In this document: positions 8,958 to 33,758 of the stretch, piece after piece
Layout: every line of letters begins with the position of its first letter
Position numbering within the stretch: position 1 is the stretch's first letter
NCBI GenBank assembly: GCA_964496855.1
Contig: CAZCAU010000002.1
Span: 4,122 to 68,121 of the forward strand
Reading direction: 5' to 3'
DNA from: an uncultured Desulfurococcales archaeon
GTDB lineage: Archaea > Thermoproteota > Thermoprotei_A > Sulfolobales > CAZCAU01
Length of the DNA: 64,000 bases
The notes under the pieces: generated by a model
Told to the model about the DNA's origin: nothing
What the model saw: the letters and a program-made list of their open reading frames with translations, nothing else
Database searches by the model: none
Program-made: the position numbers and the translations under genes

Positions 8958-8977
8958 ATCTTCACCTAGAACATGGA

Positions 8978-9698: not shown

Positions 9699-9712
9699 AG
9701 AGATGAATAGCC

Positions 9713-12931: not shown

Positions 12932-13049
12932 AATTACCTTCATCTAAACACGTAGCTTAATTAACAATATTTAATTTTATAGAGTAATACGTGTTAAAGA
13001 ACAGTCTGCTGAAAATAACTAGCAGACCAAGCCCAATAGGTATCATATT

Positions 13050-13646
13050 ATGAGGAATAATGTTAACAGTGAATACTTAAAGATAACACCTAGTGAAGTG
13101 AGAACTTATACTTATTGTCCCCGGCTCTTCTTCTATGAGACGTACATGAGTAGAGAAAAGAGCTTCTCCGAGAAACTGAGACTTGCTCTTGGTAGACTTT
13201 ATCACTTTATCTTGGAGAGCCTAATACGTATCAGGAGGAGAGGAGCACTTGTAGAAAAAAGTATTGAAAGACCACTAGGGAACATACTATTAGTAGGGCG
13301 TCCAGACGCGATTCTTCCTGGTAAAGATCATCTTCAAATAGTAGAGATAAAAAGTGGTAAAGCCCCAGCCAATGGGAGACCCTGGCATTCTGATAAGATG
13401 CAACTAGTTGCATATTACATGTTGTTATCAGGTGTGGTACAGAAAGAGATAAGGACTCTGCTACGGTACCGTGATAGAGAATTCTTTGTGAAGATAACAT
13501 CTAATGATGTTACGCGTTTTCATAAAATATTAGAAGAAATATATTACGTGAAAGCATATGGTATATTCCCGGCAGCCAAATATAGTCCAGGAAAATGTCA
13601 AAGATGTCCTTATCTAACGTACTGCATGATTGTAGGCTTTCCCTAG
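13050..13646 (+). CDS. Stand-alone Cas4-like PD-(D/E)xK nuclease (DUF83 architecture)
   Basis: 198 aa. It has an N-terminal Cys (YTYCPRLFFY), a nuclease core (GRPDAIL...LQIVEIKSGK), QLVAYYML, and a C-terminal CQRCPYLTYC cluster, giving a 4-Cys Fe-S arrangement. There is no CRISPR array or other cas gene in the window. Confidence 0.7.
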   Translation: MRNNVNSEYLKITPSEVRTYTYCPRLFFYETYMSREKSFSEKLRLALGRLYHFILESLIRIRRRGALVEKSIERPLGNILLVGRPDAILPGKDHLQIVEIKSGKAPANGRPWHSDKMQLVAYYMLLSGVVQKEIRTLLRYRDREFFVKITSNDVTRFHKILEEIYYVKAYGIFPAAKYSPGKCQRCPYLTYCMIVGFP

Positions 13647-13739
13647 CCTCTTCCTCAACAATACTCAAATGCTAAAATAAATTAGTCCCTAAGGATATAT
13701 CATGTTGTACTAGAGGCTGCTATAAGAGGAAATAACGTA

Positions 13740-14684
13740 ATGTACGATAAGGCTCAAGAAGAGTTCGAGGAACTTTCAAAGAAAGTATGGGAGATCTATG
13801 GAGGCTCACTAGTCACCCGGGAGCCTATTAGAGACCCTGAGCTAGCTGTTAAGATCTTGAGACAGGAGTATAAACTAGTTGTAGACAAAGAGCTGGTAAC
13901 ACTAGTGTTCGCATCCTTCTATAATAACAAACCAGTCTTATTTGAAGGCCCTCCAGGTACGGGTAAGACCGAGATAGGTCAAGCACTACTAGAGCTATGG
14001 TCTGGTAAGTCAGCTTTTATCCTGCCTTGTAGCGAGAACTATGATGAATACAGAGTGATAGGTGATTTCCACCCATTAATGGCTATAAGGTATGGTTTTA
14101 ACGAGAAAAGCTTCATACCAAGAACATTACTAGCGGCAGTCATCATAGATGCTGGTGTACTAATAGACGAGATAAGGAGATCTAGCGAGGAGTTCCAGAA
14201 CCTACTACTCGACATCATAGATAAGCGTAGGATAATAATCCCAGAGCTTAAGAAAACTATTTATGCTAAGGGAGATGGGTTCCAGGTTATACTAACATCG
14301 AATCCTGAGGACATAGCACAAGGAGAGCTCAGCGATGCTTTTCTCAGACGCGTCACTAGGATAGAGTTTAACTACCCGGACGAGGATACAGAGATAGAGA
14401 TAATAAAAATAAGGCTCTTATCAGGCCTACCTCCTTTACCAGCGGAAAAGATGCACTTGATAGTTGATACATTAAACGAGCTTAGAGATAAAGGCATGGA
14501 GTATAAGCCTGGGCCTAGTGAAGCAGTGTCATGGGCACAATTAGCTCAGAGAGTAGCGATGATTAGGGGTAGGAAGAGAGTAGATGATATAGATCTTCTT
14601 GATGCTGGTAGAAGCGTTCTAGGCAAGAAGTACGATGATAAAGACATTGTCGAGGAGGTATTGAGGAAAAGGTTTCGGGTATAA
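13740..14684 (+). CDS. MoxR-family AAA+ ATPase
   Basis: 314 aa. Walker A LFEGPPGTGKTE, Walker B GVLIDEIRRS, and VILTSNPED. It is followed 5 nt later by a VWA-domain gene, the classical MoxR-VWA pairing. Confidence 0.8.
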   Translation: MYDKAQEEFEELSKKVWEIYGGSLVTREPIRDPELAVKILRQEYKLVVDKELVTLVFASFYNNKPVLFEGPPGTGKTEIGQALLELWSGKSAFILPCSENYDEYRVIGDFHPLMAIRYGFNEKSFIPRTLLAAVIIDAGVLIDEIRRSSEEFQNLLLDIIDKRRIIIPELKKTIYAKGDGFQVILTSNPEDIAQGELSDAFLRRVTRIEFNYPDEDTEIEIIKIRLLSGLPPLPAEKMHLIVDTLNELRDKGMEYKPGPSEAVSWAQLAQRVAMIRGRKRVDDIDLLDAGRSVLGKKYDDKDIVEEVLRKRFRV

Positions 14685-14688
14685 CTAT

Positions 14689-16773
14689 ATGGTAGACATT
14701 TTCAAAGAGGCTTATACTAGTATGGAAGACAAGCAAATAGCTGAAAGCCTAGGTAATGCTACAAAGCTATTGCTAAGTATAGCATTTGAGCTCAAAGAAC
14801 GAGGCGCTAAAATATCTGTGTCGGAGATTATCGATTCTCTTAGACTCATGTACACGTACGCTTTTCTCAATAAAAACATCACACTAAATGATTTATACAA
14901 AATCATAAGGGCCTCACTAGTTAAGAAACCAGAGTATCAAGACCTATACGACAAGATATGGGAGAAGAAGACAAGCCTGGCTAGAGCTGTTCCAGAAGAA
15001 GTATTTAGAAACCTGTGGCATGAAGTGCTTCAACGTTTACATACTTTACACACGGATTTCGGCAAAAAAGTCTCTCTCAGCAGAGTAGAAGATGCGAAAA
15101 ATAGGCAAGAGTATATGAAGAAAATTTCTTCGTACATAGAGTTGAGAAAAGCAGGCTTGATAGAGAAATATGGTTCTAGAGAATACATTGTGTCGCGTAA
15201 AAAAGCATTGATGCATCTGAAAAGGGTTGCAAGAGAATATAATGCCCACATAACAAGCTTGGCAAGCTTAGCCGATAAGCTATGGATTAATGAGCCAAAG
15301 GGTAAGTGGGATCGTGATTTTCTAAGAATAGTCCTAAGATATAGCGAGCTAAATCCTGATACTCTTAAAAATATGAGTGATACTCAGCTGGATAGGTTGT
15401 TATCTGTATCAAATTCTGCTACAAGCCGTAATAAGAGGATAATAGACAAGGAAATAGCTAGCAGGCTAAGTAACGGTAGACTTGAGAATAGTAGGAATAT
15501 TGAGAACATAATTGACGATTTAATATCGCATAATAGGCTTTCTCTAAGTATGGAAGAGTTGTCTTTCCTATTGTCTAGGAAGCCTGAGCTCATAGAAAAA
15601 ATAATGAATACCAGTTTTATGAATTATGAAAAGCTTAGAAGTCTTCTTGATAAATTACCTTCTCAAGAATCTAGGGAGATTATACGTAGACTACTCAGAA
15701 AGCAGCCTGGCTATATTAATTTATTACTAAAAGATATTTTGAGAGGCAACTTGTCTCCCGAGATTTTGCCAGAAAAACAATCGCTTAAAAAGATAAGCCG
15801 TGAAGCAGACTTACTAATGCTTGTTGCATCCATAATGCATAATGTTGACAACTATATTAGTACAGGGAATGCCGGATATTTAGACATGATTCAAGACCAG
15901 TTATTCAAACTTCAGAATAAGATGAGAAAAGAAGCATTAAGCGGTAAGGGAATACAAGGCTTAGACAAGCTTAGAGAGGCACTGTACATACTTGGTACAG
16001 AAGCTGATCGAGAAATAGGGATTGCGAAATTCCTGGTGAAAACGCAACCAATACATAAGGCTTTCACCAATATATCAAGACTATACTCCACGGCAACCAG
16101 TATTGAGACTAGGAAGAGACTTATACGAATAGCTCTTCGCGCCTGGAGATTGTCGTTAGTGAAGTACAGAGGAGGACATCTGGTTTACAAAAAGACTAGA
16201 GTCTCTTACAGGACTCCAAGACTTGACTACCGAAGTAGTATATATAACATGATTAGGCTTACACATGTCTACAAGTATATTGCTAGGCATAAGCAACGGA
16301 GAATAGTCTTAGTAGTAGACTATAGTGGTAGTATGCAAAAGTACTCTATCTACGCTCTCCTCATGGCATCAGCTCTCTTGCCTAGAGTAAAACGGATAAC
16401 GCTCTTTTCGCAGCACCCTGAAAACTTTGATGTGAGGGGGAGGAGCAGAAGCATATCCCGACTCGTCGAGATACTGATCTCTAAAAAGTTTGAAGGATTG
16501 ACAGACATAGTAGCAGCCTTAAAGAGCAGTACTAGAAGAACTCGCCCTGGTATACTGGTTCTAGTATCAGATCTCAAACAAACGGTTAAGAGAAGTATAG
16601 GTGTCGAGGAAATCGTTAAGCAGCTCATCTTAAGAGGCTGGAGAATTAAGGTGGTGGTACCCCCAGACTATAATGTTGAGGCTAGTGAGAGACTCAAGAG
16701 TTATGGAGCAAAGATATATGTGCTAAGCGATGTGTCTAGGATAAAACCTATTGCTCAAAAGATATTTTCTTAG
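14689..16773 (+). CDS. VWA-domain protein (CoxE-like), partner of the MoxR ATPase
   Basis: 694 aa. The C-terminal VWA domain has a MIDAS-like RIVLVVDYSGSM. The N-terminal ELKERGAKISVSEIIDSL...LVKKPEYQDLYDKIW resembles CoxE-type proteins. A long helical middle region has no recognisable motif. Confidence 0.7.
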   Translation: MVDIFKEAYTSMEDKQIAESLGNATKLLLSIAFELKERGAKISVSEIIDSLRLMYTYAFLNKNITLNDLYKIIRASLVKKPEYQDLYDKIWEKKTSLARAVPEEVFRNLWHEVLQRLHTLHTDFGKKVSLSRVEDAKNRQEYMKKISSYIELRKAGLIEKYGSREYIVSRKKALMHLKRVAREYNAHITSLASLADKLWINEPKGKWDRDFLRIVLRYSELNPDTLKNMSDTQLDRLLSVSNSATSRNKRIIDKEIASRLSNGRLENSRNIENIIDDLISHNRLSLSMEELSFLLSRKPELIEKIMNTSFMNYEKLRSLLDKLPSQESREIIRRLLRKQPGYINLLLKDILRGNLSPEILPEKQSLKKISREADLLMLVASIMHNVDNYISTGNAGYLDMIQDQLFKLQNKMRKEALSGKGIQGLDKLREALYILGTEADREIGIAKFLVKTQPIHKAFTNISRLYSTATSIETRKRLIRIALRAWRLSLVKYRGGHLVYKKTRVSYRTPRLDYRSSIYNMIRLTHVYKYIARHKQRRIVLVVDYSGSMQKYSIYALLMASALLPRVKRITLFSQHPENFDVRGRSRSISRLVEILISKKFEGLTDIVAALKSSTRRTRPGILVLVSDLKQTVKRSIGVEEIVKQLILRGWRIKVVVPPDYNVEASERLKSYGAKIYVLSDVSRIKPIAQKIFS

Positions 16774-16793
16774 AGAATTACGAGTCTTGGGGA

Positions 16794-16805
16794 AAATTTA
16801 ATATT
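16794..16805 (+). promoter_or_regulatory. TATA-box-like element upstream of the uS19-led operon
   Basis: AAATTTAATATT lies in the 114-nt intergenic region, about 85 nt upstream of the GTG start at 16888. Mirror copy at 46826..46837. Motif only. Confidence 0.25.
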
Positions 16806-16887
16806 CCCATATAGTTAATCCGTGTAACAAAGAAGATGCTGGTAGGGGTAACCGGTAGTAAATGCTGAAGAAAATGGTGGGGATAGC

Positions 16888-17328
16888 GTGGCTATAAGCA
16901 TAGAAGAGATCCCGGTCGAATGGAGAAAATTTAGGTATAGAGGACGTAGCATAGAGGAATTACTAAACCTGCCGATGGACGAGTTCATTAAACTTCTCCC
17001 TGCTCGTCAAAGAAGGAGCATTCTCAGAGGGTTTACGCCTGCACAAAGAAAGCTTATAGAAAAGATAAGGCGTGTCAGAAATATCCTTAAGAAAGACCCC
17101 AATAGGAAAATCGTTATACGTACCCATGTAAGAGACATGATCATACTACCTGAGATGGTAGGATTAACTATTGCTGTTTACAATGGCAAAGAGTTCATAC
17201 CCGTAAGGATCACACCAGAGATGATAGGTCATTACTTAGGAGAGTTCGCGCCTACGTGTAAACAAGTACAGCACGGCGAGCCTGGTCTGAAAGCCACTCG
17301 TTCAAGCATGTTCGTAGGACTAAAGTAA
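16888..17328 (+). CDS. rps19: 30S ribosomal protein uS19 (S15e)
   Basis: 146 aa. The GTG start is preceded by GGTGG. Blocks [28 protein letters not shown] and [15 protein letters not shown]. Confidence 0.93.
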
Positions 17329-20249: not shown

Positions 20250-21008
20250 ATGGGCAAATTAGGTGGAAGCAGACACCTTAGAAGCTTTGCAGCACCAGGT
20301 TTCTGGCCTATTCTTAGAAAGGAGTATCACTGGGCGCCTAAACCTTCCCCAGGCCCACATCCAATAGAGAGATCTCTACCTCTTCTACTCATAGTACGCA
20401 ATGTACTAGGTTATGCCGAGACTTCTAGAGAGGCAAGGAAGATAATAAGTGAGGGACACATAAAGATAGATGGGAGAGTGAGAAAAGACTATAAGTACCC
20501 CGTAGGCTTCATGGATGTAATCGAAATCACTACCACTGGTGAAAAGTATAGGTTCATACCTTATCCCGTAAAGCATTTCAAGCTCCACCCTGTCTCGGAG
20601 GATGAAGCTTCCTTTAAACCCGTCAGAATAGAGAATAAAACAACTGTTAAAGGCGGGCATATCCAGTTAAACTTCCATGATGGCAGGAATCACCTAATCA
20701 AGGTATCAGACCCGCGTAACCCTGTGGAGGATAGATACGAGACTCTCGGTACAATAAAGCTAGGAATACCTGAACAAGAAATCTTGGATTACACCCCCCT
20801 TGAAATAGGGAAGCTAGCCATTATTGTTGGTGGCAGAAACATAGGCAGAGTAGGCAAGATAGTTGACATAAAAAGAGGTATGGGCAGGCATAGGAGTATA
20901 GTTACATTAGAGAGAAAGAATGGTGAAAAAGTACAGACAAGTCTTAATTACGTGTTCGTAATCGGCGATGAAGAGCCATTGATATCATTGCCTGAGGAGG
21001 TGTATTGA
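20250..21008 (+). CDS. rps4e: 30S ribosomal protein eS4 (S4e)
   Basis: 252 aa. N-terminus [21 protein letters not shown], an S4-like block, and KOW-like [15 protein letters not shown]. Confidence 0.95.
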
Positions 21009-21571
21009 GCAGGATGTCGTTGTCTCCAGAGCTTGTTGACGATATCTTGAAGAAATGGAGCGAGAACCCTATGAGAAAACCTAGAATAGCCAAGGTCACG
21101 GTGAATATAGGTGTCGGCCAAAGCGGGGAGCGTTTACAGAAAGCAGCTACATTACTTGAGCAACTAACTGGTCAAAAACCGGTTTTTAGGAGAGCAAAGA
21201 AGACAATAAGGGGTTTTGGCATACGTAAGGGCGAAAACATAGCTGTGATGGTTACTCTTAGAGGCCAACATGCTATAGAATTCTTAAAGAGAGCACTTGA
21301 GGCTGTCGGTTGGAGAATAAAGGCTAGCAGTTTTGACGATTATGGGAATGTATCTTTCGGAATAACAGAGCATATCCTTATCCCAGGCACTACGTACGAT
21401 CCGGAAATGGGAGTCTTTGGAATGGATATAGCAATAACTTTAGAACGGCCAGGTTACAGAATTATGAGAAGAAGGCGTTGCCGCAAGAAACGCGTGCCTA
21501 GAAGGCATAGGGTATCTAAGGAAGAGGGAATAGTCTTTCTATCTAAAGAACTAGGTGTACAGATAGTCTAA
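21005..21571 (+). CDS. rpl5: 50S ribosomal protein uL5 (L11e)
   Basis: 188 aa. The TTG start overlaps the S4e stop (TTGA); an alternative ATG is at 21014. Blocks [15 protein letters not shown] and [19 protein letters not shown]. Confidence 0.94.
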
Positions 21572-21581
21572 GGTGGGGTAG

Positions 21582-21746
21582 ATGGGCAAGTATAGGCCTA
21601 TTAAGGTGAGAAAATACGGGAAGGGCTCGCGTGCATGCATTAGATGTGGATCTCGAGATGCTATCATCAGGAAGTATGGCCTATACCTCTGCAGGCAATG
21701 CTTCCGAGAAGTAGCGTATAGCATAGGATTTAGAAAATACAACTAG
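21582..21746 (+). CDS. rps14: 30S ribosomal protein uS14 (zinc-ribbon type, S29e-like); absent from the supplied ORF track
   Basis: Hand-translated 54 aa: [54 protein letters not shown]. It has CxxC...CxxC and GGTGGGG 4 nt upstream of the ATG. It sits at the canonical slot between L5 and S8. Confidence 0.93.
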
Positions 21747-21760
21747 GGTGGGATTAAGCA

Positions 21761-22162
21761 ATGGTCATGCTGGATACACTAGCCAACGCCCTGGCTACAA
21801 TATACAATTGCGAGATGCGAGCTAAGAAAGAAGCCATAATTATGCCTGCTTCTAAACTCATAATAGCGGTATTAAGAGTGTTCCAGAAGGAGGGGTACAT
21901 AGGAGAGTTCGAGTACATAGATGATGGGAGATGGGGTAAGATCAAAGTACAGCTACTAGGAAGGATAAATAAGACTGGCGTCATTAAACCAAGATTCTCT
22001 GTAAGCTATAGAGAACTAGCAGAGATGCCCCACTGGCTAAGAAAGTACTTGCCTTCACGAGAGTTCGGGATACTGGTTGTAAGCACTCCTAAAGGCATGA
22101 TGTCGCACAAGGAGGCAATACAGCACAGAACAGGTGGTGTTCTACTAGCATATGTATACTAA
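21761..22162 (+). CDS. rps8: 30S ribosomal protein uS8
   Basis: 133 aa. Blocks [35 protein letters not shown] and GGVLLAYVY. Confidence 0.95.
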
Positions 22163-22187
22163 TAACATGATAAACGAGGCGATAGCA

Positions 22188-22739
22188 ATGGCCAAGGTTG
22201 TTCATGTCGCTGAAGAAGTTGAAATCCCGGAAGGAGTCAATGTGGAAATTAATGGTTTAAAAGTCAGGGTTAGTGGACCCAAGGGTACGCTTGAGAGGGA
22301 TTTCTCTCACGCTAGAGGAATTATTGTAAGAAAAGAAGACAATAAAGTAGTGGTTGAAACCTTTTTCGCGAATAGGCGTAAAAAAGCACTTGTAGGATCA
22401 ATTGCATCTCATATTTCTAACATGATAACAGGTGTGACAAAAGGATATAGGTACAAGCTTAAGATAATATACTCGCACTTCCCAATAAGCGTTAAAGTCG
22501 AAGGAAAGAAGATACTCATAGAGAACTTCCTTGGCGAAAGAGCACCAAGAGTAGCAGAGATTTATGGCGACGATGTACGTGTCAGAGTTGAAGGAACTGA
22601 TGTCATTGTTGAGGGTATAAATATCGAAAACGTGGGCCAGACAGCAGCCAACATCGAGAGAGCCACGAAAATAAGCGATTTGGATAGACGTGTCTTCATG
22701 GACGGTATATACATCTACGAGAAAGGGGTGATGGAGTAA
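22188..22739 (+). CDS. rpl6: 50S ribosomal protein uL6
   Basis: The track ORF begins at 22152. ATG 22188 (MAKVVHVAEEVEIPEGVNV...) has GAGG 9 nt upstream and fits the usual uL6 N-terminus. Blocks VRVSGPKGTLERDF and KLKIIYSHFPISVKVEG. Confidence 0.92.
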   Translation: MAKVVHVAEEVEIPEGVNVEINGLKVRVSGPKGTLERDFSHARGIIVRKEDNKVVVETFFANRRKKALVGSIASHISNMITGVTKGYRYKLKIIYSHFPISVKVEGKKILIENFLGERAPRVAEIYGDDVRVRVEGTDVIVEGINIENVGQTAANIERATKISDLDRRVFMDGIYIYEKGVME

Positions 22740-23140
22740 TGGGGTCAACACAGCCTCCACGCAAGAGTCTTGAGAGATTACTCAGGCTGAGAAATGAGTT
22801 AAGAAGACGTTTACCAGACTTCTACAGACACCAGTACTGGAAGTTTAAGAAATTTAGCAGAGACCCGTGCTGGCGCAAGCCTAAAGGTAATGATAATAAG
22901 ATGAGGCTTAAACTCAAGGGATACCCGCCTGTTGTAAGCATAGGTTACCGCAAGCCAACTGAGATAAGAGGCTTGCATCCGTCAGGTTTATACCCGGTAA
23001 CAGTGTCATCTCTTAGAGATCTCGACGCCTTCGATCCGTCTGAGCATATAATATATATCTCCTCCACTGTTGGTTATAGGAAGAGGCAAGAGATAATTAA
23101 GGCGGCTCTAGAGAAAGGGTTTAAGATAGCTAATATGTAG
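22739..23140 (+). CDS. rpl32e: 50S ribosomal protein eL32 (L32e)
   Basis: 133 aa. The ATG overlaps the rpl6 stop (TAATG). Block WRKPKGNDNKMRLKLKGYPPVVSIGYRKP. Confidence 0.93.
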   Translation: MGSTQPPRKSLERLLRLRNELRRRLPDFYRHQYWKFKKFSRDPCWRKPKGNDNKMRLKLKGYPPVVSIGYRKPTEIRGLHPSGLYPVTVSSLRDLDAFDPSEHIIYISSTVGYRKRQEIIKAALEKGFKIANM

Positions 23141-23147
23141 GTGCAGA

Positions 23148-23600
23148 GTGATGGATCTAAGCTTGCAGAAAAGACTGGCGGCAGAGATACTAGGAGTCGG
23201 TGTAAGCAGGGTTAAGATAAAACCCGAGGAAGCTGAGAGAGTAAGCGAGGCGTTGACTAGAGAGGATGTAAAGAAACTCATTAAGGAAGGAATAATATAT
23301 GTCGAGCCAGTACATGGCAATGCTCATAGATGGCTTGAGAGGAGGAGGAAGAGACAAAAGGGCCATAGGAGAGGGTGTGGTAAGAGGAAGGGTAAGAAAA
23401 CTGCTAGGCTACCTGAGAAAGAGGCTTGGATGCATAGGATTAGAAAGATGAGGCGGCATCTCAGGTACCTTAGGGATAACAAGAGAATTGATGCGAGAAC
23501 TTATAGGCGGCTCTACATGCTCGCTAAAGGCGGAATGTTTAAGAGCTTGTCTGCTTTGCAGAGTTACATCACTGAACATAGTCTACTCAAGAAGAAATAA
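23148..23600 (+). CDS. rpl19e: 50S ribosomal protein eL19 (L19e)
   Basis: 150 aa. N-terminus DLSLQKRLAAEILGVGVSRVKI and the basic RRRKRQKGHRRGCGKRKG. Confidence 0.94.
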   Translation: MMDLSLQKRLAAEILGVGVSRVKIKPEEAERVSEALTREDVKKLIKEGIIYVEPVHGNAHRWLERRRKRQKGHRRGCGKRKGKKTARLPEKEAWMHRIRKMRRHLRYLRDNKRIDARTYRRLYMLAKGGMFKSLSALQSYITEHSLLKKK

Positions 23601-23619
23601 CAGGTAGGGTAAGAAGACA

Positions 23620-24225
23620 ATGGCTAGAGGGCCTAGATACAAAGTCCCTAGAAGAAGGAGAAGAGAGGGGAAGACGAACTACTATAAGAGATACACAATG
23701 GTACTGTCTAAGAGGCTCAGGCTAGTCATTAGGAAGTCGCTAAAGTACATCCAGGCACAGATAATAAAAGCTGAGCCCCAGGGCGATGTAACATTAGTGG
23801 CCGCTCATAGCAGGGAATTGGTTAAAAAATATGGTTGGAAAGCAGGGACTTGCAATACCCCAGCAGCATACCTCACAGGATACCTCTTGGGGCTCCGTGC
23901 ACTAGAGAAGGGGATAAAAGAAGCAATAGCTGATATAGGTCTCCATAAGCCTGTTAAAGGTGCAAGAGTTTTCGCCGTTGTTAAAGGAGCGCTTGATGCA
24001 GGTCTAAAAATACCTGTATCTGAAGAAGTGTTGCCCTCCGAGGATAGGATTCGTGGTGTCCATATAGCAGAATATGCTAAGAAACTCGAAGAAGAGGATC
24101 CTGAACGCTTCTCACGCTTATTCTCTGCGTTATTATCGCGCGGGTTTAACCCCGTTGATACGCCTAAGCATTTTGATGAGGTAAAGACACGAATAAGTGA
24201 AGATTACAAGGGTGTAAAGGCATGA
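23620..24225 (+). CDS. rpl18: 50S ribosomal protein uL18 (L5e)
   Basis: 201 aa. [24 protein letters not shown] and [15 protein letters not shown]. Confidence 0.94.
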
Positions 24226-24857
24226 GCCAGCAGCAAAGCTTGGAAGAATGGGTCCCTAGGACTAGAGCAGGCCGTATGGTAAAAGAGGGTAGAATAGCCT
24301 CCCTAAAAGAGATATTTGAGCGCAACCTTCCTCTACTAGAACCCGAGATAGTAGATTATCTCATGCCTGATCTTAAACACGAGGTGCTCGACGTCTCGCT
24401 CGTGCAAAAAGTAACTGATGCTGGTCGTGATACAAAGTTCAGAGTAGTAGTCGTTGTCGGTAATGAAGACGGCTTTGTGGGATTAGGGGCTGGTAAAGCC
24501 AAACAGTTACGTTTCGCAATAGAGAAGGCGATAATTAATGCTAAGCTCAATATCACGCCAGTTAGAAGAGGATGTGGTAGCTGGGAGTGTACCTGCGGCG
24601 AGCCTCACTCAGTGCCTTTCACTGTCAGAGGTAAGAGTGGTAGCGTAATAGTAGAGTTAAAGCCAGCTCCTAAAGGCACTGGATTAGTAGCGGGGGATGT
24701 GGCAAAAACTGTTCTTCGATTAGCTGGGATAAGAGATGTATGGTCATCAACACTAGGCGAGACGAGAACTACTTACAACTTCGCTCGTGCCACATACAAT
24801 GCACTAAAAGCAACCTATCGCGTCGTAACCCCAGCAGACTGGGCACGCTCCACCTAA
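24222..24857 (+). CDS. rps5: 30S ribosomal protein uS5 (S2e)
   Basis: 211 aa. The ATG overlaps the rpl18 stop (ATGA). Blocks [22 protein letters not shown] and [11 protein letters not shown]. Confidence 0.95.
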
Positions 24858-24895
24858 GACTAAGTCACTAACTATTAAGAAGCAGGTGCCATGTT

Positions 24896-25375
24896 ATGAC
24901 AGCATTATATGCTATCATAAGGATCAGAGGGATACCTGATACTCCCCCAGATGTAGAGCATACTCTTAAGCTACTTAGATTACACAGAAAGTATCATGCA
25001 GTATTATATCCAGACACCTTACCTGGGATAAGAGAGATGCTTAGAAAAGCTCAGGGATGGATAACATGGGGCGAGATAGACGAGGAGACACTTATAGAGT
25101 TGCTAAAGAAACGGGGAAGAGCACCAGGTAATAAGAAACTTGACGAGAAATACTTAGAGGAAAAGCTAGGTGTCAAAAGCTTCTCGGAGCTGGCTAAAAA
25201 GCTTCTCTCTGGAGAAATAATGCTTCACAAACTTGAGGATAAAATAAAACCCGTATTTAGGCTTCATCCACCTAAAGGCGGCTTTAAAGGAAGTATAAAG
25301 AAAATGTACGGCAATGACGGAGAGCTTGGCTATAGGGGTAAAGCAATAAATGATTTACTTAAAAGAATGATCTAA
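24896..25375 (+). CDS. rpl30: 50S ribosomal protein uL30 (L7e)
   Basis: 159 aa. Blocks YAIIRIRGIPDTPPDVEHTLKLLRLHRK and WGEIDEETLIELLKKRG. Confidence 0.93.
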   Translation: MTALYAIIRIRGIPDTPPDVEHTLKLLRLHRKYHAVLYPDTLPGIREMLRKAQGWITWGEIDEETLIELLKKRGRAPGNKKLDEKYLEEKLGVKSFSELAKKLLSGEIMLHKLEDKIKPVFRLHPPKGGFKGSIKKMYGNDGELGYRGKAINDLLKRMI

Positions 25376-25391
25376 GACTGGTGACCCCATA

Positions 25392-25853
25392 ATGGTTAGG
25401 AGAAAGAGGAGGAAATCTAGAAAATTAAGAGGAAGGACTCGAACAATGGGCTGGGGACGAATAGGCCAGCACAGAAAAAGTGGTTCTAAGGGAGGATACG
25501 GAGCAGCTGGTATGCATAAGCATAGGTGGACATGGGTCGTAAAATACGCTCCTAACTGGTTCGGGAAGCACGGCTTCACACATCCAGTCTCGCATAAGAT
25601 AGAGATTAAAGAGATAAATGTAGGTGAGTTAGACGAGATGGCCGAATACTTATTAAAGACAAGCGTGGCTACCCGCGAAGACGAGGCTATAAAGATTGAC
25701 TTGGGCAAGCTAGGCGTAAACAAGCTCCTTGGTAGAGGCAAGGTATCCAAAGCTCTCATAGTAGTAGTTAACGAAGCTTCTGAGAAAGCGATAGAGAAGA
25801 TAGAGAATGCTGGCGGCAAGGTAATCATAGCCGGGGAGAAGAGTACATTTTAA
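25392..25853 (+). CDS. rpl15: 50S ribosomal protein uL15 (L27Ae)
   Basis: 153 aa. RKSRKLRGRTRTMGWGRIGQHRKSGSKGGYGAAGMHKH. Confidence 0.94.
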   Translation: MVRRKRRKSRKLRGRTRTMGWGRIGQHRKSGSKGGYGAAGMHKHRWTWVVKYAPNWFGKHGFTHPVSHKIEIKEINVGELDEMAEYLLKTSVATREDEAIKIDLGKLGVNKLLGRGKVSKALIVVVNEASEKAIEKIENAGGKVIIAGEKSTF

Positions 25854-25916
25854 ATTTATTCAATTACTAGAAAGTTTTAGTGATAACCTCTTAGTAGCTA
25901 GAAGGGATGCATTATA

Positions 25917-27290
25917 ATGGGACTGCTTGATGCCATAGCTAATGCATCTAGATATCTTCCATCAGTCAAGAAGCCGAAACGTAAACAATCGTTATATAGA
26001 CGTCTTCTTGTCACAGGCCTAGTGTTAGTTCTCTATTTCGTAATGGCTAACATTCCTCTCTACGGAGTCAAGGTTACCGGTGGCAGCGTAGGTTTAATGC
26101 AGATAATATTTGCCTCAAATATAGGTACATTAATGGAACTCGGGATAGGGCCTATAGTTACTGCCAGCCTTGTTCTACAGGTTTTAGCGGGTGCTAAGAT
26201 TATAGATCTAGACCTAAGCGATCCCGAGTCTAGGAAGAAATTCACAGCGGCACAGAAAACACTTGCAATAGTATTTGCTGTGTTTGAGGCCTCGGCCTAT
26301 GTATTAAGCTGTAGGTATTGGGGGCCTGTAACAGGTAATCCCATAACAGCTTGTCCCGTATCTATAGGTGTCCGTGTAATAGACATACTACTACTCACCA
26401 CAGCTACATTTATGGTTGTTCTATTTGATGAAATGCTTCAAAAAGGATGGGGAGTAGGTAGCGCGATAAGCCTGTTCATACTAGGCGGCGTAGCCTATCA
26501 TATGTTCTGGGCTTTGTTCGGCTTATCTCCCGGAGGTCAACAGCACTACGGATTCATACCATACCTAATACAGGGTGGGCGGCAAGCCATACTCAGAGAG
26601 CACGGCTATCCAGACCTTATCGGTCTCATAGCTACGATAGCCGCTATACTATTGCTTATATATCTGCAAGGCATGAGGGTGGAGATACCCATCGCATCAC
26701 AAAAACTTCGTGGTATTAGGAGCAGGGTCCCTCTACAATTCATCTATGTTACTAACATACCCATACTACTAGTAGGAATACTAGTAGCCGATCTTCAGAT
26801 ATTTGCGAATGCTTTTTCAAACTTTATGGGCGACAATGTCTTCACAAGATTCTTGATGGCCAGCTATGAGTATGCCAGACCTCCTAGAGGGTTACTCGAT
26901 GCTTTATCTGATCCTACTAGGACTGCTGTATACGTGGCAATATGGCTTATACTAGCAGTATTATTCGGCTATATGTGGGTGGAAATAGCAGGTCTTAATC
27001 CTCAAGCACAAGCAAAGAATCTTATAAGTTCTGGACTAGACGTACCAGGTATGAGACGGAATCCCAAGGCTTTAGAGAAAAGGCTTGCTAGATATATCTA
27101 TCCCTTAACCCTTCTTAGCTCTATAATAGTAGCGTTAATAGCTGTTACAGCAGATATTTTCGGGGCTTATGGTAGTGGAACTGGTATACTGTTAGCAGTA
27201 GGTATAATCATTCAATATTATCGTCTAATAGCTTATGAAAGAGCATTAGAAGCATATCCATTACTCAAGAGGATATTAGGTGAAGAGTAA
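25917..27290 (+). CDS. secY: Protein translocase subunit SecY
   Basis: 457 aa with about 10 TM helices. Blocks IFASNIGTLMELGIGPIVTASLVLQVL and GTGILLAVGIIIQYY. It sits at the canonical position after L15. Confidence 0.96.
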   Translation: MGLLDAIANASRYLPSVKKPKRKQSLYRRLLVTGLVLVLYFVMANIPLYGVKVTGGSVGLMQIIFASNIGTLMELGIGPIVTASLVLQVLAGAKIIDLDLSDPESRKKFTAAQKTLAIVFAVFEASAYVLSCRYWGPVTGNPITACPVSIGVRVIDILLLTTATFMVVLFDEMLQKGWGVGSAISLFILGGVAYHMFWALFGLSPGGQQHYGFIPYLIQGGRQAILREHGYPDLIGLIATIAAILLLIYLQGMRVEIPIASQKLRGIRSRVPLQFIYVTNIPILLVGILVADLQIFANAFSNFMGDNVFTRFLMASYEYARPPRGLLDALSDPTRTAVYVAIWLILAVLFGYMWVEIAGLNPQAQAKNLISSGLDVPGMRRNPKALEKRLARYIYPLTLLSSIIVALIAVTADIFGAYGSGTGILLAVGIIIQYYRLIAYERALEAYPLLKRILGEE

Positions 27291-27901
27291 TGAAACGCCA
27301 TCCCTTCAAAGTAGTAGTGGTAACTGGAGCACCCGGTGTAGGAAAGACTACAGTATTAGCTCTTCTCTCAAAACTTCTAGAAGAAAGAAAAGCACGTTTT
27401 ATTATCTCTAATTTCGGAGACTACATGTTGAAGGCTGCTGTGAAAGCAGGTTACGCTAAAACTCGTGATGAAATACGGAAACTCAACCAAAGAGTACAAC
27501 TAGGGTTACAGGAACTAGCAGCAGAACTCATAATACGTGATGCTGAAGAGAAGATAGGAGAAGACGGTGTGCTTATCGTTGATACACACTCTATCATAAA
27601 AACCAGGACTGGGCTATGGCCTGGGCTACCCGAGAATGTTGTGAAAACATTACTTCCAGACGCTATAGTACTAATTGAAGCTAAGCCAGAGGTAATTCTT
27701 GAAAGACAGCTTCGTGATAAGACTAGGGATAGAGGCGATGTAGCAGACGTGGAGTTCTTAAGAGAATTCCTTGCACAAGCAAGAATAGCCGCGATAGCCA
27801 GTGCCGTGCATACAGCATCAGCTGTTGTAATGGTTGAGAACCCTGAAGGTGAACCTATAAAAGCTGCAGAGACCATTATGAGGATAATTGAGACAATCTA
27901 G
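27290..27901 (+). CDS. adk: Adenylate kinase, archaeal type
   Basis: 203 aa. The ATG shares its A with the secY TAA. P-loop VVVTGAPGVGKTT, then LIVDTHSIIKTRTGLWPGLP and ERQLRDKTRDR. Confidence 0.9.
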   Translation: MKRHPFKVVVVTGAPGVGKTTVLALLSKLLEERKARFIISNFGDYMLKAAVKAGYAKTRDEIRKLNQRVQLGLQELAAELIIRDAEEKIGEDGVLIVDTHSIIKTRTGLWPGLPENVVKTLLPDAIVLIEAKPEVILERQLRDKTRDRGDVADVEFLREFLAQARIAAIASAVHTASAVVMVENPEGEPIKAAETIMRIIETI

Positions 27902-28406
27902 GTGTCCTGACTTGCCTCATATAAATGCTCTCGCAACCCTAGTTGTAACAGAACTAATAGTCTTAGCGGCCATTCTAGTATCTAAGGCTACACAGGACGA
28001 GAGAGTCTTAAGAGCTAGGAGGAGACTAGAAGAACTAAGCGAGTTCATGCGCTTGGCAAAAATAGAGGGATCACCAAAAGCTTTGAAGAAAGCCAGACGC
28101 TTAGAGCCCGAGTTTAAGGCATTAAGATCCTTTATCTTTAGACACACACTTATAGACTCCTTTAAGTACATGCTCCTATTCTTCATAGGATTATTCATTA
28201 TAACTAGTTACTGGCCATACTCTTTATCACCAGTATACATACCTGGCTTAACATACCAAGCCGATAATGGAGTCATTATTATCCCTAGCGCTATCCTAAT
28301 GCTTTTGATCTACATGTTGAATGTACCATGGATACAGAGCGCTATGGGTGTCAGAATAACAACGAAGGGCATATATTACGTTAAAACCAGAGAGAGAAAG
28401 ATTTAA
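27888..28406 (+). CDS. DUF106/EMC3-like membrane protein (archaeal YidC/Oxa1-related family)
   Basis: 172 aa. A TM helix is followed by a charged coiled segment (RARRRLEELSEFMRLAKIEGSPKALKKARRLEPEFK) and then two more hydrophobic helices. It occupies the conserved position after adk. The exact start is uncertain because it overlaps adk by 14 nt. Confidence 0.6.
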   Translation: MRQSRCPDLPHINALATLVVTELIVLAAILVSKATQDERVLRARRRLEELSEFMRLAKIEGSPKALKKARRLEPEFKALRSFIFRHTLIDSFKYMLLFFIGLFIITSYWPYSLSPVYIPGLTYQADNGVIIIPSAILMLLIYMLNVPWIQSAMGVRITTKGIYYVKTRERKI

Positions 28407-28521
28407 GCCTCTTCTTAAAAGAAATTAAAACACGTCCTAAATAACCCAAGCCCCTGTAGAGACAGATAATAGTGTAAAATAGAGAGGAGAAACAAATAAT
28501 GAGATCACTGGGTGTCCAACA

Positions 28522-28797
28522 ATGGTGAGGCCCTCCCTGAGAACACGTAGTAAGAAGAGAGTCAAAGTCAGGACACCTGGTGGTAGATTAGCACTACACT
28601 TTAAGAGGGAGAAACCCGGATACGCAAAATGCGCCATATGCGGTGCTAAACTTAACGGCGTGCCACGTTTACTGCCCTCTAAGCTATCTAAGCTACCAAA
28701 GACAAAGAAGAGACCACAGAGACCATATGGTGGACATCTTTGTCCTAGATGTTACTCTAGGCTACTCATAAAGAGTACTAGAAGCGTGATACTATAA
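28522..28797 (+). CDS. rpl34e: 50S ribosomal protein eL34 (L34e)
   Basis: 91 aa. MVRPSLRTRSKKRVKVRTPGGRLALHFKREKPGYAKCAICGAKLNGV. Confidence 0.93.
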   Translation: MVRPSLRTRSKKRVKVRTPGGRLALHFKREKPGYAKCAICGAKLNGVPRLLPSKLSKLPKTKKRPQRPYGGHLCPRCYSRLLIKSTRSVIL

Positions 28798-28850
28798 TTC
28801 CTTAGCAGAAGACTCTCTACCTCTTACAATCTTATCCTGAGGAGCAGGTC

Positions 28851-29408
28851 TTGAGAAAAAACATAGTTATAGCTATTAGCGGTCCACCTGGTAGTGGCAA
28901 AACTACTTATGCCAGGAAACTTGCTGAAGATCTGGGACTCAGCTATCATTCTGCAGGATCAATATTTCGTGAAATTGCTAAAGAGAAAGGTATCAGCTTA
29001 TACGAATTAAGTAAGATCGCAGAGAAGGACCCATCCATAGACTTAGAGATAGATAGACGCACACTAGAGATGAGTTTAAATAAGAACATCGTAATTGAAG
29101 GCCACCTTGTAGCCTGGGTACTTAAAGATATCGCGGATATCAAGATATATGTTACAGCACCTTTGCTGGTTAGAGTAAAAAGGATAGCCCTGCGTGAGAA
29201 TAGGGATATATTAGAGGTCCTCCGTGAAACATCTTATAGAGAGCTGAGCCAGGAAATCAGGTTTTACGAATATTATGGGATAAATATCCGTGATCTCTCA
29301 ATTTTTGATTTAGTTATAGACACTTCTAGGCTAAGCATTGATGAAGCTTATAGTGTTATAAAACACTTCGTAGAAAACACGCTTTCTGGTAGACGAAAAT
29401 TAAATTAG
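28851..29408 (+). CDS. cmk: Cytidylate kinase, archaeal type
   Basis: 185 aa. The TTG start is preceded by GGAGCAGG. P-loop IAISGPPGSGKTT, then SAGSIFREIAKEKG and IVIEGHLVAWVL. Confidence 0.88.
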   Translation: MRKNIVIAISGPPGSGKTTYARKLAEDLGLSYHSAGSIFREIAKEKGISLYELSKIAEKDPSIDLEIDRRTLEMSLNKNIVIEGHLVAWVLKDIADIKIYVTAPLLVRVKRIALRENRDILEVLRETSYRELSQEIRFYEYYGINIRDLSIFDLVIDTSRLSIDEAYSVIKHFVENTLSGRRKLN

Positions 29409-29473
29409 GAGTAATAATTAATGCCGTATAGGGTATCATAAGATATAATCCAGCTCTCTGGTGACAAGCACCC

Positions 29474-29770
29474 ATGCCAGCCATAGAAGTTGGAAGACTA
29501 TGCGTTAAGCTAAGAGGAAGAGAAGCTGGCCGTAAATGCGTTATAGTAGACATCATAGATGAAAACTTTGTCCTCATCACAGGTCCTAAAAGCCTAAGTG
29601 GTGTTAAGAGAAGACGGGCAAACATAGCACATATAGAGCCTCTCGAGAAAAAGATAGATATAGAGAAAGGAGCCAGTGATGAAGAAGTCTTAGAGGCTTT
29701 GAAGAAAGCTGGCCTAGAAGAATTTATGAGAGAACCAGTGAAGGTACAAGTATCTCCTTTCACTAGATAA
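29474..29770 (+). CDS. rpl14e: 50S ribosomal protein eL14 (L14e)
   Basis: 98 aa. [29 protein letters not shown] (KOW-like) and [12 protein letters not shown]. Confidence 0.92.
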
Positions 29771-29822
29771 GAGAGTTATTTCCTCAATACTACATTCTAG
29801 AGTCTTCTAGAAAACCACAGTA

Positions 29823-29831
29823 CTTTTTATA
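29823..29831 (+). promoter_or_regulatory. TATA-box-like element upstream of cbf5
   Basis: CTTTTTATA lies 42 nt upstream of ATG 29873 in a 102-nt intergenic gap. Mirror copy at 33800..33808. Motif only. Confidence 0.3.
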
Positions 29832-29872
29832 CGTGTTTCCTTACTCTTATTACCCAATTCTATTACTAAATA

Positions 29873-30967
29873 ATGATAAGAAAGAAGAAAGAGGGTCTAA
29901 TCAATATGGATATAACTAGTAGAGGCCTAGCTTTCATAAAGAGCATCGAGGAATTCTGTGAAAAAGGATCCGAGTGGCTCATAAAAGATGAGGAAGAAAC
30001 AAGTCCGGACTACGGGGTAGTGCCATGGGATAGGAGTATAGAAGACTACATAAAAAACGGAATAATAAACTTGGACAAGCCACCTGGGCCCACGAGTCAC
30101 GAGGTAGTAGCATGGATTAAGAAAATGTTTGGTCTCAGCAGGGCTGGCCATGGGGGTACCCTAGAGCCCCTGCACTAGCAGGGGCGGGGAGACCCCAAGG
30201 TAACCGGTGTACTACCGGTAGCCTTAGAAAACGCGACGAAGGTTATAGGAAACATTGTTTATGCCACAAAAGAGTATATCTGTGTCATGCAGTTACATGG
30301 AGATGTAAGTGATGAAGATCTTAGGAAGACTATAGAGATGTTTCAGGGCGTAATATACCAGAGACCTCCTGTTAGGTCAAGTGTAAAGAGGTCTCTTAGA
30401 AAGAAGAAAGTATATGAAATAGAGTTCTTAGAGAGAATGGGTAGGCTAGTCCTCCTAAGGATAAGAAGTGAAGCAGGAACTTATATGAGAAAGATATGCC
30501 ACGATATAGGCGAACTTCTAGGAGTAGGTGCACACATGAGGGAGCTCAGAAGAACAAAGACAGGCCCCTTCTCGGAAGAAAATAATCTTGTTAAACTACA
30601 AGATGTTTCGGAGGCACTCTACGTATTTAGGGAGTATGGTAAAGATAAGTTACTGAGAAGAATCATACTTCCCATGGAGTATTCTGTCTGTGAAATGCCT
30701 AAGATAGTGATTAGAGATTCGGCGGTAGAGGCATTAACTCATGGTGCTCAACTAGCTGTGCCAGGAATACTAAGGTTCACAAGCGATGTTGAAAGAAGAA
30801 AGAGGGTAGCAATACTAACTCTTAAAGGAGAACTAGTAGCATTCGGGCAAGCCTTAATGAGTGCAAAAGAGATCATGGAGAACGAGAAAGGGATAGCTGT
30901 CAAGCTCTCAAGAGTAATAATGCCTACTGGGATCTACCCGCGCATGTGGAAGAAAAGTAAGGAATAA
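29873..30967 (+). CDS. cbf5: tRNA/rRNA pseudouridine synthase Cbf5 (H/ACA RNP catalytic subunit), split by a 27-nt BHB intron: join(29873..30164,30192..30967)
   Basis: Two same-frame track ORFs (29873..30178 and 30287..30967) cover the gene. Exon 1 ends ...SRAGHGGTL. After removal of 30165..30191 the reading frame continues DPKVTGVLPVALENATKVIGNIVYATKEYICVMQLHG..., restoring the TruB catalytic motif GHGGTLDP. A PUA-like C-terminus is present. Confidence 0.9.
30165..30191 (+). other. Protein-gene (pre-mRNA) intron with a bulge-helix-bulge splice motif
   Basis: An 8-bp inner helix, GCCCCTGC (30166-30173) with GCAGGGGC (30178-30185), is capped by ACTA. A 4-bp central helix pairs CCCT (30159-30162) with GGGG (30186-30189). 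AGA trinucleotides flank it at 30163-30165 and 30190-30192, and the outer helix pairs GGGG with CCCC (30193-30196). It contains an in-frame TAG. Boundaries are ambiguous by 1-2 nt because GA is repeated at both junctions. Confidence 0.8.
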
Positions 30968-30986
30968 AAAGAGGTATAAGAAGGTC

Positions 30987-31604
30987 TTGGAGCACTACTA
31001 TTCCAGTAAACAAGGTTCCAGAGGACCACTATCACTAATATCAGACATCGTTAGAGGAGTAAGCATAGAACTGTACACAAGCCCCGGAGTATTTTCAAAG
31101 AACAAAATAGATCTTGGAACAAGACTACTCGTAGAAAACGCATGGATACCCGATGAGGGAAGAGTCCTAGATCTAGGATGCGGGTATGGAGTTATAGGTA
31201 TCGTACTTGCAAAACTCAATCCTCGGCTAGAGGTATACATGGTAGATATAAATCCACAAGCAGTAAAACTAGCAAGGCTGAACGCTAAGAGAAACAATGT
31301 AGAAGAGCGTGTAAGGATATATCAAGGCAATCTCTTTGATCCACTCCCAGTAAAGGTGTTTAAAGCAATATATTCGAATCCACCATTGTCAGCCGGGGCG
31401 GCAACTCTGGAGAAACTATTACTTGAATCTTTAGAGCGTCTTGAAGAAAACGGAAAACTGCAACTAGTCCTTAAAAAGGGGGGAGAAAAAATAGTTAAAA
31501 TAGCCCAGGAATCCAACTATAATGTTGAGATAGAGAAGCACAATAAAAAAGGGTATATGCTCTTAACGATAACAAAGAGAAGCCGGGGTGCCCGAGCGGA
31601 CTAA
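30987..31604 (+). CDS. Class I SAM-dependent methyltransferase (RsmC/Mj0882-like small-domain MTase)
   Basis: 205 aa with a TTG start. Motif I is VLDLGCGYGVIG and motif IV is IYSNPPLSAG. The last 23 nt, including the stop, overlap the 5' part of tRNA-Ser. Confidence 0.75.
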   Translation: MEHYYSSKQGSRGPLSLISDIVRGVSIELYTSPGVFSKNKIDLGTRLLVENAWIPDEGRVLDLGCGYGVIGIVLAKLNPRLEVYMVDINPQAVKLARLNAKRNNVEERVRIYQGNLFDPLPVKVFKAIYSNPPLSAGAATLEKLLLESLERLEENGKLQLVLKKGGEKIVKIAQESNYNVEIEKHNKKGYMLLTITKRSRGARAD

Positions 31605-31670
31605 GGGGCCGGCCTTGAGAGCCGGTGCCCCGTTGGGGGCGCGCGGGTTCGAATCCCGCCCCCGGCGCCA
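31582..31670 (+). tRNA. tRNA-Ser (anticodon UGA), type II with long variable arm, genomically encoded CCA, no intron
   Basis: Hand-folded. The acceptor stem is GCCGGGG/CCCCGGC with discriminator G. The D stem is 3 bp. The anticodon stem is CCGGC/GCCGG with loop CUUGAGA. The variable arm is GCCCC-GUUG-GGGGC. The T arm is GCGGG-UUCGAAU-CCCGC. It is by far the most GC-rich island of the arm. Confidence 0.93.
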
Positions 31671-31680
31671 CTTATATACC
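31671..31680 (+). promoter_or_regulatory. Consensus-like archaeal TATA box immediately 3' of the tRNA
   Basis: CTTATATACC (a second CTCATATAAG follows) lies about 50 nt upstream of ATG 31729. That ATG opens a frame running into the palindrome axis. Mirror copy at 31951..31960. Confidence 0.3.
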
Positions 31681-31960
31681 CCTCATATAAGCTCCACCAT
31701 CGCTCTGAAGAGCTGCAACCTATGTTTCATGACTAACCGTACAAAGCTATGCTCTCCAGAACCGTGCTGGCCCGAATGGTTTGCATACGCTCATTACAAA
31801 AAGATAGTGTATCCCGGGATACACTATCTTTTTGTAATGAGCGTATGCAAACCATTCGGGCCAGCACGGTTCTGGAGAGCATAGCTTTGTACGGTTAGTC
31901 ATGAAACATAGGTTGCAGCTCTTCAGAGCGATGGTGGAGCTTATATGAGGGGTATATAAG

Positions 31961-32049
31961 TGGCGCCGGGGGCGGGATTCGAACCCGCGCGCCCCCAACG
32001 GGGCACCGGCTCTCAAGGCCGGCCCCTTAGTCCGCTCGGGCACCCCGGC
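31961..32049 (-). tRNA. tRNA-Ser (UGA), mirror copy
   Basis: Exact reverse complement of 31582..31670 (x -> 63631-x). Confidence 0.9.
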
Positions 32050-32663: not shown

Positions 32664-33758
32664 TTATTCCTTACTTTTCTTCCACATGCGCGGGTAGATC
32701 CCAGTAGGCATTATTACTCTTGAGAGCTTGACAGCTATCCCTTTCTCGTTCTCCATGATCTCTTTTGCACTCATTAAGGCTTGCCCGAATGCTACTAGTT
32801 CTCCTTTAAGAGTTAGTATTGCTACCCTCTTTCTTCTTTCAACATCGCTTGTGAACCTTAGTATTCCTGGCACAGCTAGTTGAGCACCATGAGTTAATGC
32901 CTCTACCGCCGAATCTCTAATCACTATCTTAGGCATTTCACAGACAGAATACTCCATGGGAAGTATGATTCTTCTCAGTAACTTATCTTTACCATACTCC
33001 CTAAATACGTAGAGTGCCTCCGAAACATCTTGTAGTTTAACAAGATTATTTTCTTCCGAGAAGGGGCCTGTCTTTGTTCTTCTGAGCTCCCTCATGTGTG
33101 CACCTACTCCTAGAAGTTCGCCTATATCGTGGCATATCTTTCTCATATAAGTTCCTGCTTCACTTCTTATCCTTAGGAGGACTAGCCTACCCATTCTCTC
33201 TAAGAACTCTATTTCATATACTTTCTTCTTTCTAAGAGACCTCTTTACACTTGACCTAACAGGAGGTCTCTGGTATATTACGCCCTGAAACATCTCTATA
33301 GTCTTCCTAAGATCTTCATCACTTACATCTCCATGTAACTGCATGACACAGATATACTCTTTTGTGGCATAAACAATGTTTCCTATAACCTTCGTCGCGT
33401 TTTCTAAGGCTACCGGTAGTACACCGGTTACCTTGGGGTCTCCCCGCCCCTGCTAGTGCAGGGGCTCTAGGGTACCCCCATGGCCAGCCCTGCTGAGACC
33501 AAACATTTTCTTAATCCATGCTACTACCTCGTGACTCGTGGGCCCAGGTGGCTTGTCCAAGTTTATTATTCCGTTTTTTATGTAGTCTTCTATACTCCTA
33601 TCCCATGGCACTACCCCGTAGTCCGGACTTGTTTCTTCCTCATCTTTTATGAGCCACTCGGATCCTTTTTCACAGAATTCCTCGATGCTCTTTATGAAAG
33701 CTAGGCCTCTACTAGTTATATCCATATTGATTAGACCCTCTTTCTTCTTTCTTATCAT
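32664..33758 (-). CDS. cbf5: Pseudouridine synthase Cbf5 with BHB intron (mirror copy): exons 33467..33758 and 32664..33439
   Basis: Reverse-complement twin of 29873..30967; both track ORFs are identical. Confidence 0.85.
33440..33466 (-). other. cbf5 BHB intron (mirror copy)
   Basis: CTCCCCGCCCCTGCTAGTGCAGGGGCT is the reverse complement of 30165..30191. Confidence 0.75.

Follow-up and report, generated by a model that had tools for sequence, protein, structure and literature searches.

The window analysed here (the whole stretch of DNA, 64,000 nt) carries two head-to-head tRNA-Ser copies separated by 290 bp, each lying 145 bp from an axis of symmetry. Positions 1–31815 and 31816–63630 are perfect reverse complements of each other, with 31,815 of 31,815 positions matching. 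Every candidate symmetry register was tested: p+q=63631 was the sole register with 100% complementarity, and its neighbours reached 24–28%. The features of the window and of the region around the axis are the following:

1–31815, plus strand: arm 1, a native chromosomal segment (Pfam scans and comparison with the contigs L005 and L006, see below)
31816–63630, minus strand: arm 2, the exact reverse complement of arm 1
63631–64000, minus strand: continuation of arm 2 past the displayed part of arm 1, beyond the left edge of the window
31582–31670, plus strand: tRNA-Ser(UGA), the real copy (ARAGORN; Rfam RF00005, 48.8 bits)
31671–31731, plus strand: 61-bp block with CTTATATACC and a 7-bp hairpin, CTTATAT-N7-ATATAAG (alignment and fold)
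31732–31815, plus strand: 84 bp unique to this contig, with no match elsewhere, the last native stretch before the join
31815–31816, no strand: the axis, a presumed fold-back junction with a CCC/GGG centre, zero spacer and no adapter
31961–32049, minus strand: mirror image of tRNA-Ser, read as an artefactual second copy (ARAGORN and arm symmetry)
31588–31884, plus strand: 98-aa chimeric ORF, made of the tRNA gene in frame, the flank and then the reverse complement of the flank
31747–32043, minus strand: mirror twin of this ORF, with the same translation

The coordinates that an earlier, sequence-only reading had given for the symmetry, the tRNAs, the TATA box, the ATG and the 98-aa ORFs all held on recomputation. 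The axis falls between 31815 and 31816, with ...GTGTATCCC on its left and GGGATACAC... on its right, and both GC and AT skew change sign at this point. We considered the central CCCGGG as a sign of a native palindrome and rejected it, since every perfect palindrome necessarily has a self-complementary centre. Searches for Nextera, TruSeq, SMRTbell and ONT adapters were negative throughout the window. Arm 2 is thus the same DNA written twice and provides no independent copy, and the palindrome probably extends outside the 64,000-nt window.

Gene content and matches both mark the arm as a genuine piece of the chromosome of a Desulfurococcales archaeon related to Ignisphaera. Within the genome collection, its nearest relatives at the species level are MAGs of Ignisphaera and Desulfurococcaceae, with about 50% protein identity (best at most 51%). 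In the Pfam annotation, the arm starts with two ORFs without family match and a HerA/FtsK-like ATPase, followed by L2, L3-L4-L23, a minus-strand SPOUT gene, IleRS, a Cas4-like nuclease and MoxR/VWA. Next to MoxR/VWA comes the series S19-L22-S3-RNase P p29-S17-L14-L24-S4e-L5-S8-L6-L32e-L19e-L18-S5-L30, and after L30 a 153-aa ORF (25392–25853) at the L15 position, whose counterparts in L005 and L006 carry PF00828 (Ribosomal_L27A). SecY, two kinases, L34e, L14e, Cbf5, an MTS-type methyltransferase and tRNA-Ser complete the arm. Of the 40 plus-strand ORFs with 80 aa or more, the Pfam scan covered 39 (all but the 153-aa ORF), and it also covered the SPOUT gene. Neither an integrase nor a transposase nor an att-like repeat was found in the window by Pfam and PHROGs, in agreement with the first impression that no integrase or att-like direct repeat was visible. 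A telomere resolvase was likewise absent among the ORFs scanned with Pfam and by PHROGs.

Only one clear minus-strand gene occurs in the arm, the SPOUT-type Methyltrn_RNA_3 gene at 8085–8957; the tRNA and about 40 further genes are directed toward the axis, as had been noticed beforehand for all genes except a SPOUT-like one. This convergent transcription arises because one co-directional ribosomal-protein cluster is mirrored onto itself. The cluster itself is rearranged (5028–17328): L2 stands upstream of L3-L4-L23, and about 8.8 kb of non-ribosomal genes, comprising the opposite-strand SPOUT methyltransferase, IleRS, the Cas4-like PD-(D/E)XK nuclease, the MoxR AAA ATPase and the VWA protein, separate L23 from S19.

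We then compared the arm with other public assemblies. ENA contig k141_222125 (L005, from sample ERZ27248007) carries the window's SecY and shows zero mismatches to window positions 22701–31470 beyond its adapter boundary; it ends at window 31470, 345 bp short of the axis, with no turning back. The window's exact L3 protein is also found in sample ERZ27248007. The MTS methyltransferase is 100% identical to an NCBI protein (P0001), whose two cluster mates lead to close relatives. Exact look-ups of the MTS protein itself and of a guessed partial C-terminal product yielded no contig. Three further loci align with the end of the arm:

L006, GCA_053989155.1, a 437-kb contig: 98.94% identity over window 20987–31671, diverging exactly at the tRNA 3′ end (31671/31672)
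L007, from Logan, same strain as L006: 99.08% identity, ending inside the tRNA at window 31609
L008, ENA ERZ1742239 (NODE_9842): 92.9% identity, matching up to 31731 and then diverging

tRNAs were looked for in the DNA fetched around the gene, which reached as far as 10 kb to either side if the contig was long enough. One tRNA-Ser(TGA) follows the MTS gene in each of L001 (Ignisphaera), L002 (Desulfurococcaceae), L006 and L008. The head-to-head tRNA-Ser arrangement, which the sequence-only reading had proposed to look for in related genomes, was seen in none of these four loci, all of them single-copy. Past the single tRNA-Ser of L006 lie about 660 bp without a called gene (10685–11341), then a Nitro_FeMo-Co gene, two CbiA/ParA-Fer4 genes, a peroxiredoxin, a MarR/AsnC regulator and a desulfoferrodoxin-like gene and, further on, the S13-S4-S11-RpoD-L18e-L13-S9-RpoN-S2 operon; the sequence runs at least 10 kb beyond the tRNA-Ser point, within the 437-kb contig. 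The more distant L001 and L002 carry unrelated genes after their single tRNA-Ser(TGA).

These downstream genes were also recovered from the sample that contains L005. A Nitro_FeMo-Co protein identical to that of L006 is encoded on ERZ27248007 contig k141_291361 (L013, 100% identical to L006 11274–12331), and the Prx/MarR segment lies on ERZ27248007 contig k141_376084 (L015), 99.64% identical to L006. Moreover, matching Prx and S13 variants occur together on one NCBI contig of 25,343 bp. The presence of the downstream genes on other contigs of the same sample therefore indicates that the chromosome continues past tRNA-Ser in this population, as expected if the palindromic contig is a folded-back dead end.

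The region immediately 3′ to tRNA-Ser differs between strains. The TATA-like CTTATATACC (31671–31680) directly follows the tRNA; since TTATATA is rarer in the window than by chance (10 found against about 27 expected), this motif is not a trivial one. The 61-bp block that contains it is identical at 61 of 61 positions in L008, against a backbone identity of 92.9%, and is not present in L006. It is probably the conserved border of a mobile element integrated at the tRNA. The adjoining 84-bp tract (31732–31815) was unmatched in the other loci, the rest of the window, phages, plasmids, IMG/VR and JGI metagenomes. Exact probes of 33 and 37 nt from the flank gave no match in IMG/VR or JGI metagenomes, and a search of the 145-bp flank against phages and plasmids (blastn, distant mode) found nothing. 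The predicted fold of the flank was no better than that of shuffled sequence (z-score 0.08). Rfam matches to mir-1420 (47 bits, gathering score 70) and mir-379 across the axis (31755–31876) were discarded as false positives, sub-threshold matches caused by the artificial perfect hairpin. On the other side of the tRNA, its first 23 nt (31582–31604) overlap the 3′ end of the MTS methyltransferase ORF (30987–31604), so that tRNA sequence encodes the C-terminus of the protein (...KRSRGARAD). L006 and L008 keep this overlap, and the Ignisphaera locus L001 lacks it.

Tyrosine integrases of the SSV/pNOB8 type (PF16795) insert mobile elements at archaeal tRNA genes. The three strains compared here (window, L006 and L008) carry three different sequences 3′ to the same tRNA-Ser, and in L008 a 440-aa archaeal integrase (PF16795; phrog_5127, E=5e-16) begins 127 bp after the tRNA. 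This integrase beside the same tRNA bears out the earlier suggestion that the tRNA 3′ flank is an integration hotspot. As in tRNA-integrated elements of the SSV/pNOB8 type, strain-specific DNA starts at or shortly after the tRNA-Ser 3′ end; unlike them, the window lacks an integrase and an att repeat, and holds 145 bp only of the putative element. We searched for a second att copy in L008 (up to the contig end) and in L006 and found none that was convincing. One attR candidate from this search, an 11-nt match inside a coding region, was judged to be due to chance. In L008 the region 1379–9556 encodes the integrase, a 1001-aa N6_Mtase/Eco57I-type restriction-modification protein and a MazE antitoxin, and looks like an integrated defence island.

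Several contigs end close to this site: L005 at window 31470, L007 at 31609, L010 and L012 28 bp inside the tRNA 3′ end, and L013 and L014 some 70 bp beyond the stop codon of Nitro_FeMo-Co. The break points of L013 (ENA ERZ27248007) and L014 (JGI 3300022188) are within 10 bp of one another (L006 11265–11274). This shared break point suggests a second boundary of the strain-variable tract, and the tract from the tRNA to this point is evidently strain-variable and hard to assemble. The axis had at first been described as lying at an arbitrary position. This does not hold, as the tract that contains it differs between strains and several independent contigs end in or near it; a dead end of a contig is to be expected in such a place. 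Comparison of these loci leads to a modest biological point: tRNA-Ser(UGA) downstream of the MTS gene is, on this evidence, a strain-variable integration site in the Ignisphaera-related lineage, and this is probably why the contig reaches a dead end there. We observed as well that untrimmed Nextera adapter remains at the ends of public contigs, with the mosaic end ATGTGTATAAGAGACAG in L005 1–17 and CTGTCTCTTATACACATCTCCGAGCCCACGAGAC in L008 at about 9520–9556. Those two contig ends were therefore set by adapter contamination.

We examined the reading frames at the axis separately. The twin 98-aa ORFs begin inside the tRNA, run across the axis and have no Pfam match. When the 98-aa and 49-aa axis-crossing ORFs were concatenated into one query, which takes in all open frames of both strands, nothing was found at E<=10 among 5.8e9 proteins; in particular, the full-length homologue of the palindromic ORF that would have spoken for a real protein was not found. 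The twin ORFs are junction chimeras and not genes, as the sequence-only reading had already proposed. Similarly, the 48-codon open frame across the flank had too few words in common with any of 5.8 billion proteins for a candidate to emerge.

The ATG at 31729, which opens MTNRTKLCSPEPCWPEWFAYAHYKKIVYP, had been taken as an apparent gene start truncated by the axis. Codon 29 ends exactly at 31815, so that most of this frame lies in the 84-bp tract. Against the codon usage of the genome's own genes, the 29 codons score +1.7 bits, compared with 7.2 ± 3.6 bits for real 28-codon windows, which corresponds to the 6th percentile. The 29-residue peptide contains 4 Cys/Trp, for a typical content of 1.7% (P=0.0015), it has no homologue, and the same ATG in L008 meets a stop after 5 codons. 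The claim of a truncated gene start is hence not sustained by homology, codon usage, Cys/Trp content or the short frame of L008. That ATG 31729 nevertheless is a true gene start, presumably of a mobile element integrated at tRNA-Ser and cut after 29 codons by the fold-back, is a minority possibility that we rate at about one chance in four. It would agree with the TATA-like box about 50 nt upstream, a motif otherwise depleted, with the frame being open over the whole flank and outscoring most off-frame and antisense windows, and with the first 61 bp of the flank being common to the integrase island of L008. The low coding score, the aberrant Cys/Trp content, the missing homologue and the 5-codon frame of L008 all speak against it, and 29 codons are too few to judge.

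Between the arms there are no independent substitutions and no spacer; the join lies at a non-functional position, where the axis-crossing frames have no homologue; and the arrangement is absent from independent and conspecific assemblies, with L005, L007, L010 and L012 all ending without inversion. Exact arms, zero spacer, a dead-end join and absence both in conspecifics and in an independent assembly argue together that the palindrome is very probably a technical fold-back and not a genome structure. The perfect identity of the arms taken alone would also fit a real inverted repeat homogenised by gene conversion. Inversion is excluded in the conspecifics and unsupported in the same sample, judging from the assembled sequences, and for the exact strain it is not directly disproved. 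The initial proposal that the symmetry point is a fold-back join beside a tRNA hotspot, and not biology, is now supported by comparative evidence, since conspecific and related genomes carry a single tRNA-Ser and continue into other genes.

A simple model of the fold-back would be as follows. The real path would run through the ribosomal-protein cluster, SecY, Cbf5, the MTS methyltransferase, tRNA-Ser(UGA) and 145 bp of strain-specific DNA, and the assembly would run out of unambiguous continuation 145 bp past tRNA-Ser. At this place the assembly graph would be branched or thinly covered because mobile elements at the tRNA make co-occurring strains differ. The path would then be joined at its dead end to its own reverse complement and the assembler would walk back along the same reads, so that the two arms would be identical by construction. 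Two routes could lead to such a join. In the first, a polymerase would switch template to the complementary strand and so generate chimeric fold-back fragments or reads; this could happen in strand-displacement amplification, in library preparation or in long-read sequencing. In the second, an 'inverted loop' would form purely at the level of the graph, where a short self-complementary sequence closes the last covered k-mer and the path lacks its true continuation. Which of the two applied is inferred, and we lean slightly toward the first.

For the first route, exactly mirrored contigs were found and discarded as artefacts in single-cell genomes from Yellowstone hot springs (bioRxiv 10.1101/2023.06.06.543983), and more than 85% of MDA chimeras are inverted, primed on 2–21 nt of complementarity (Lasken & Stockwell 2007, PMC1855051). 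The window resembles these cases by its inverted join, its source in a thermophile lineage and the Nextera remnants on related public contigs. Typical MDA chimeras carry an intervening deletion (PMC1855051), whereas the fold-back here is exact and without deletion, which counts against this comparison. Fold-back (duplicated-inversion) artefact reads are also described in ONT and PacBio data (Heinz, Meyerson & Li 2026, PMC12870357); as in the window, forward and reverse strands of one molecule are concatenated at the same locus. Unlike what such reads would lead one to expect, the window is adapter-free and agrees without mismatch with a short-read contig along 8.8 kb, which gives no indication of a long-read origin.

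For the second route, palindromic unitigs are known to arise from 'lonely inverted loops' in de Bruijn graphs, when a terminal k-mer with a self-complementary suffix meets an uncovered continuation (Rahman & Medvedev 2022, PMC9528984). Unitigs are unsafe at low coverage, and in the tests of the same study SPAdes and MEGAHIT contigs covered palindromes fully, without splitting (PMC9528984). The present contig is similar in being its own reverse complement at the end of a path with uncovered continuation; such unitigs need a native self-complementary (k-1)-mer at the end.

Genuine large inverted repeats exist in plastids, haloarchaeal plasmids, Streptomyces termini and the rDNA palindrome of Tetrahymena. 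Their arms flank a non-palindromic spacer or are placed at opposite ends of the replicon, and relatives share them. The window shares with them long, near-identical inverted arms and differs from them by its zero spacer and by an arrangement that is missing from relatives.

A first biological explanation would be an inverted duplication in vivo: the chromosome would have suffered a double-strand break beside tRNA-Ser, for instance where an integrase cuts an att site, and fold-back priming would have repaired it. It would imply a head-to-head duplication of at least 32 kb per arm, hence a palindrome of at least 64 kb, in one strain. The axis does adjoin a demonstrated integration site, the central CCCGGG could act as microhomology, and the native continuation of the exact strain was not found in the probe searches. 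To our knowledge, zero-spacer perfect palindromes of tens of kb are unstable and not stably kept in cells. Known inverted duplications have asymmetric junctions. In addition, about 40 essential genes would be doubled in colliding orientation, the arrangement is missing from the 98.9%-identical conspecific and from all relatives, the normal downstream genes stand on other contigs of the same sample, and the palindrome was not reproduced by an independent assembly of the same population. We thus consider this duplication highly improbable. The same low probability applies, on the sequences compared, to a real molecule formed when the chromosome broke at the integrase-targeted site by tRNA-Ser and healed into a hairpin-capped or head-to-head dimeric arm; if true, a giant palindrome would occur naturally in an archaeon of a thermophile lineage. 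Still further down, and barely conceivable, comes a covalently closed hairpin telomere at the end of a linear replicon or chromosome, read round its tip with the axis as the turn: reading round a hairpin end would indeed give a zero-spacer palindrome, but this is inference only, and no telomere resolvase or recombinase occurs among the scanned arm ORFs, the conspecific chromosome L006 goes straight on into the S13 operon, the flank has no special fold, and we know of no archaeal chromosome that has core ribosomal genes 145 bp from its end.

A technical fold-back would make this contig a database error, to be corrected by cutting between 31815 and 31816 and discarding one arm. In its present form, a public archaeal contig seems to hold every gene of the ribosomal-protein cluster twice, which inflates the duplication and contamination estimates of the genome bin. 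The join further creates phantom ORFs and a false 'head-to-head tRNA' locus, and an inverted repeat that spans the whole contig could mislead tools that seek terminal repeats.

Two other parts of the arm showed particular features. At its outer end (163–4924), ORFs of 469, 476 and 91 aa had no Pfam or PHROG match; they adjoin the 524-aa HerA/FtsK-like ATPase, which among PHROGs matches a terminase large subunit best (E=7e-19), and the outer-end genes may be a virus- or plasmid-derived module. Near the inner end, the gene of Cbf5 (dyskerin-like pseudouridine synthase) is interrupted at 30164–30190 (mirror 33441–33467) by a 27-nt in-frame insert located between ...GHGGTL and DPKVTG..., with a stop codon and the hairpin CCCCTGC-ACTA-GCAGGGG. 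Cbf5 is intact in the Desulfurococcaceae locus L002 and also split in the Ignisphaera locus L001 and in L005–L007, and the insert looks like the known mini-intron of archaeal cbf5 pre-mRNA.
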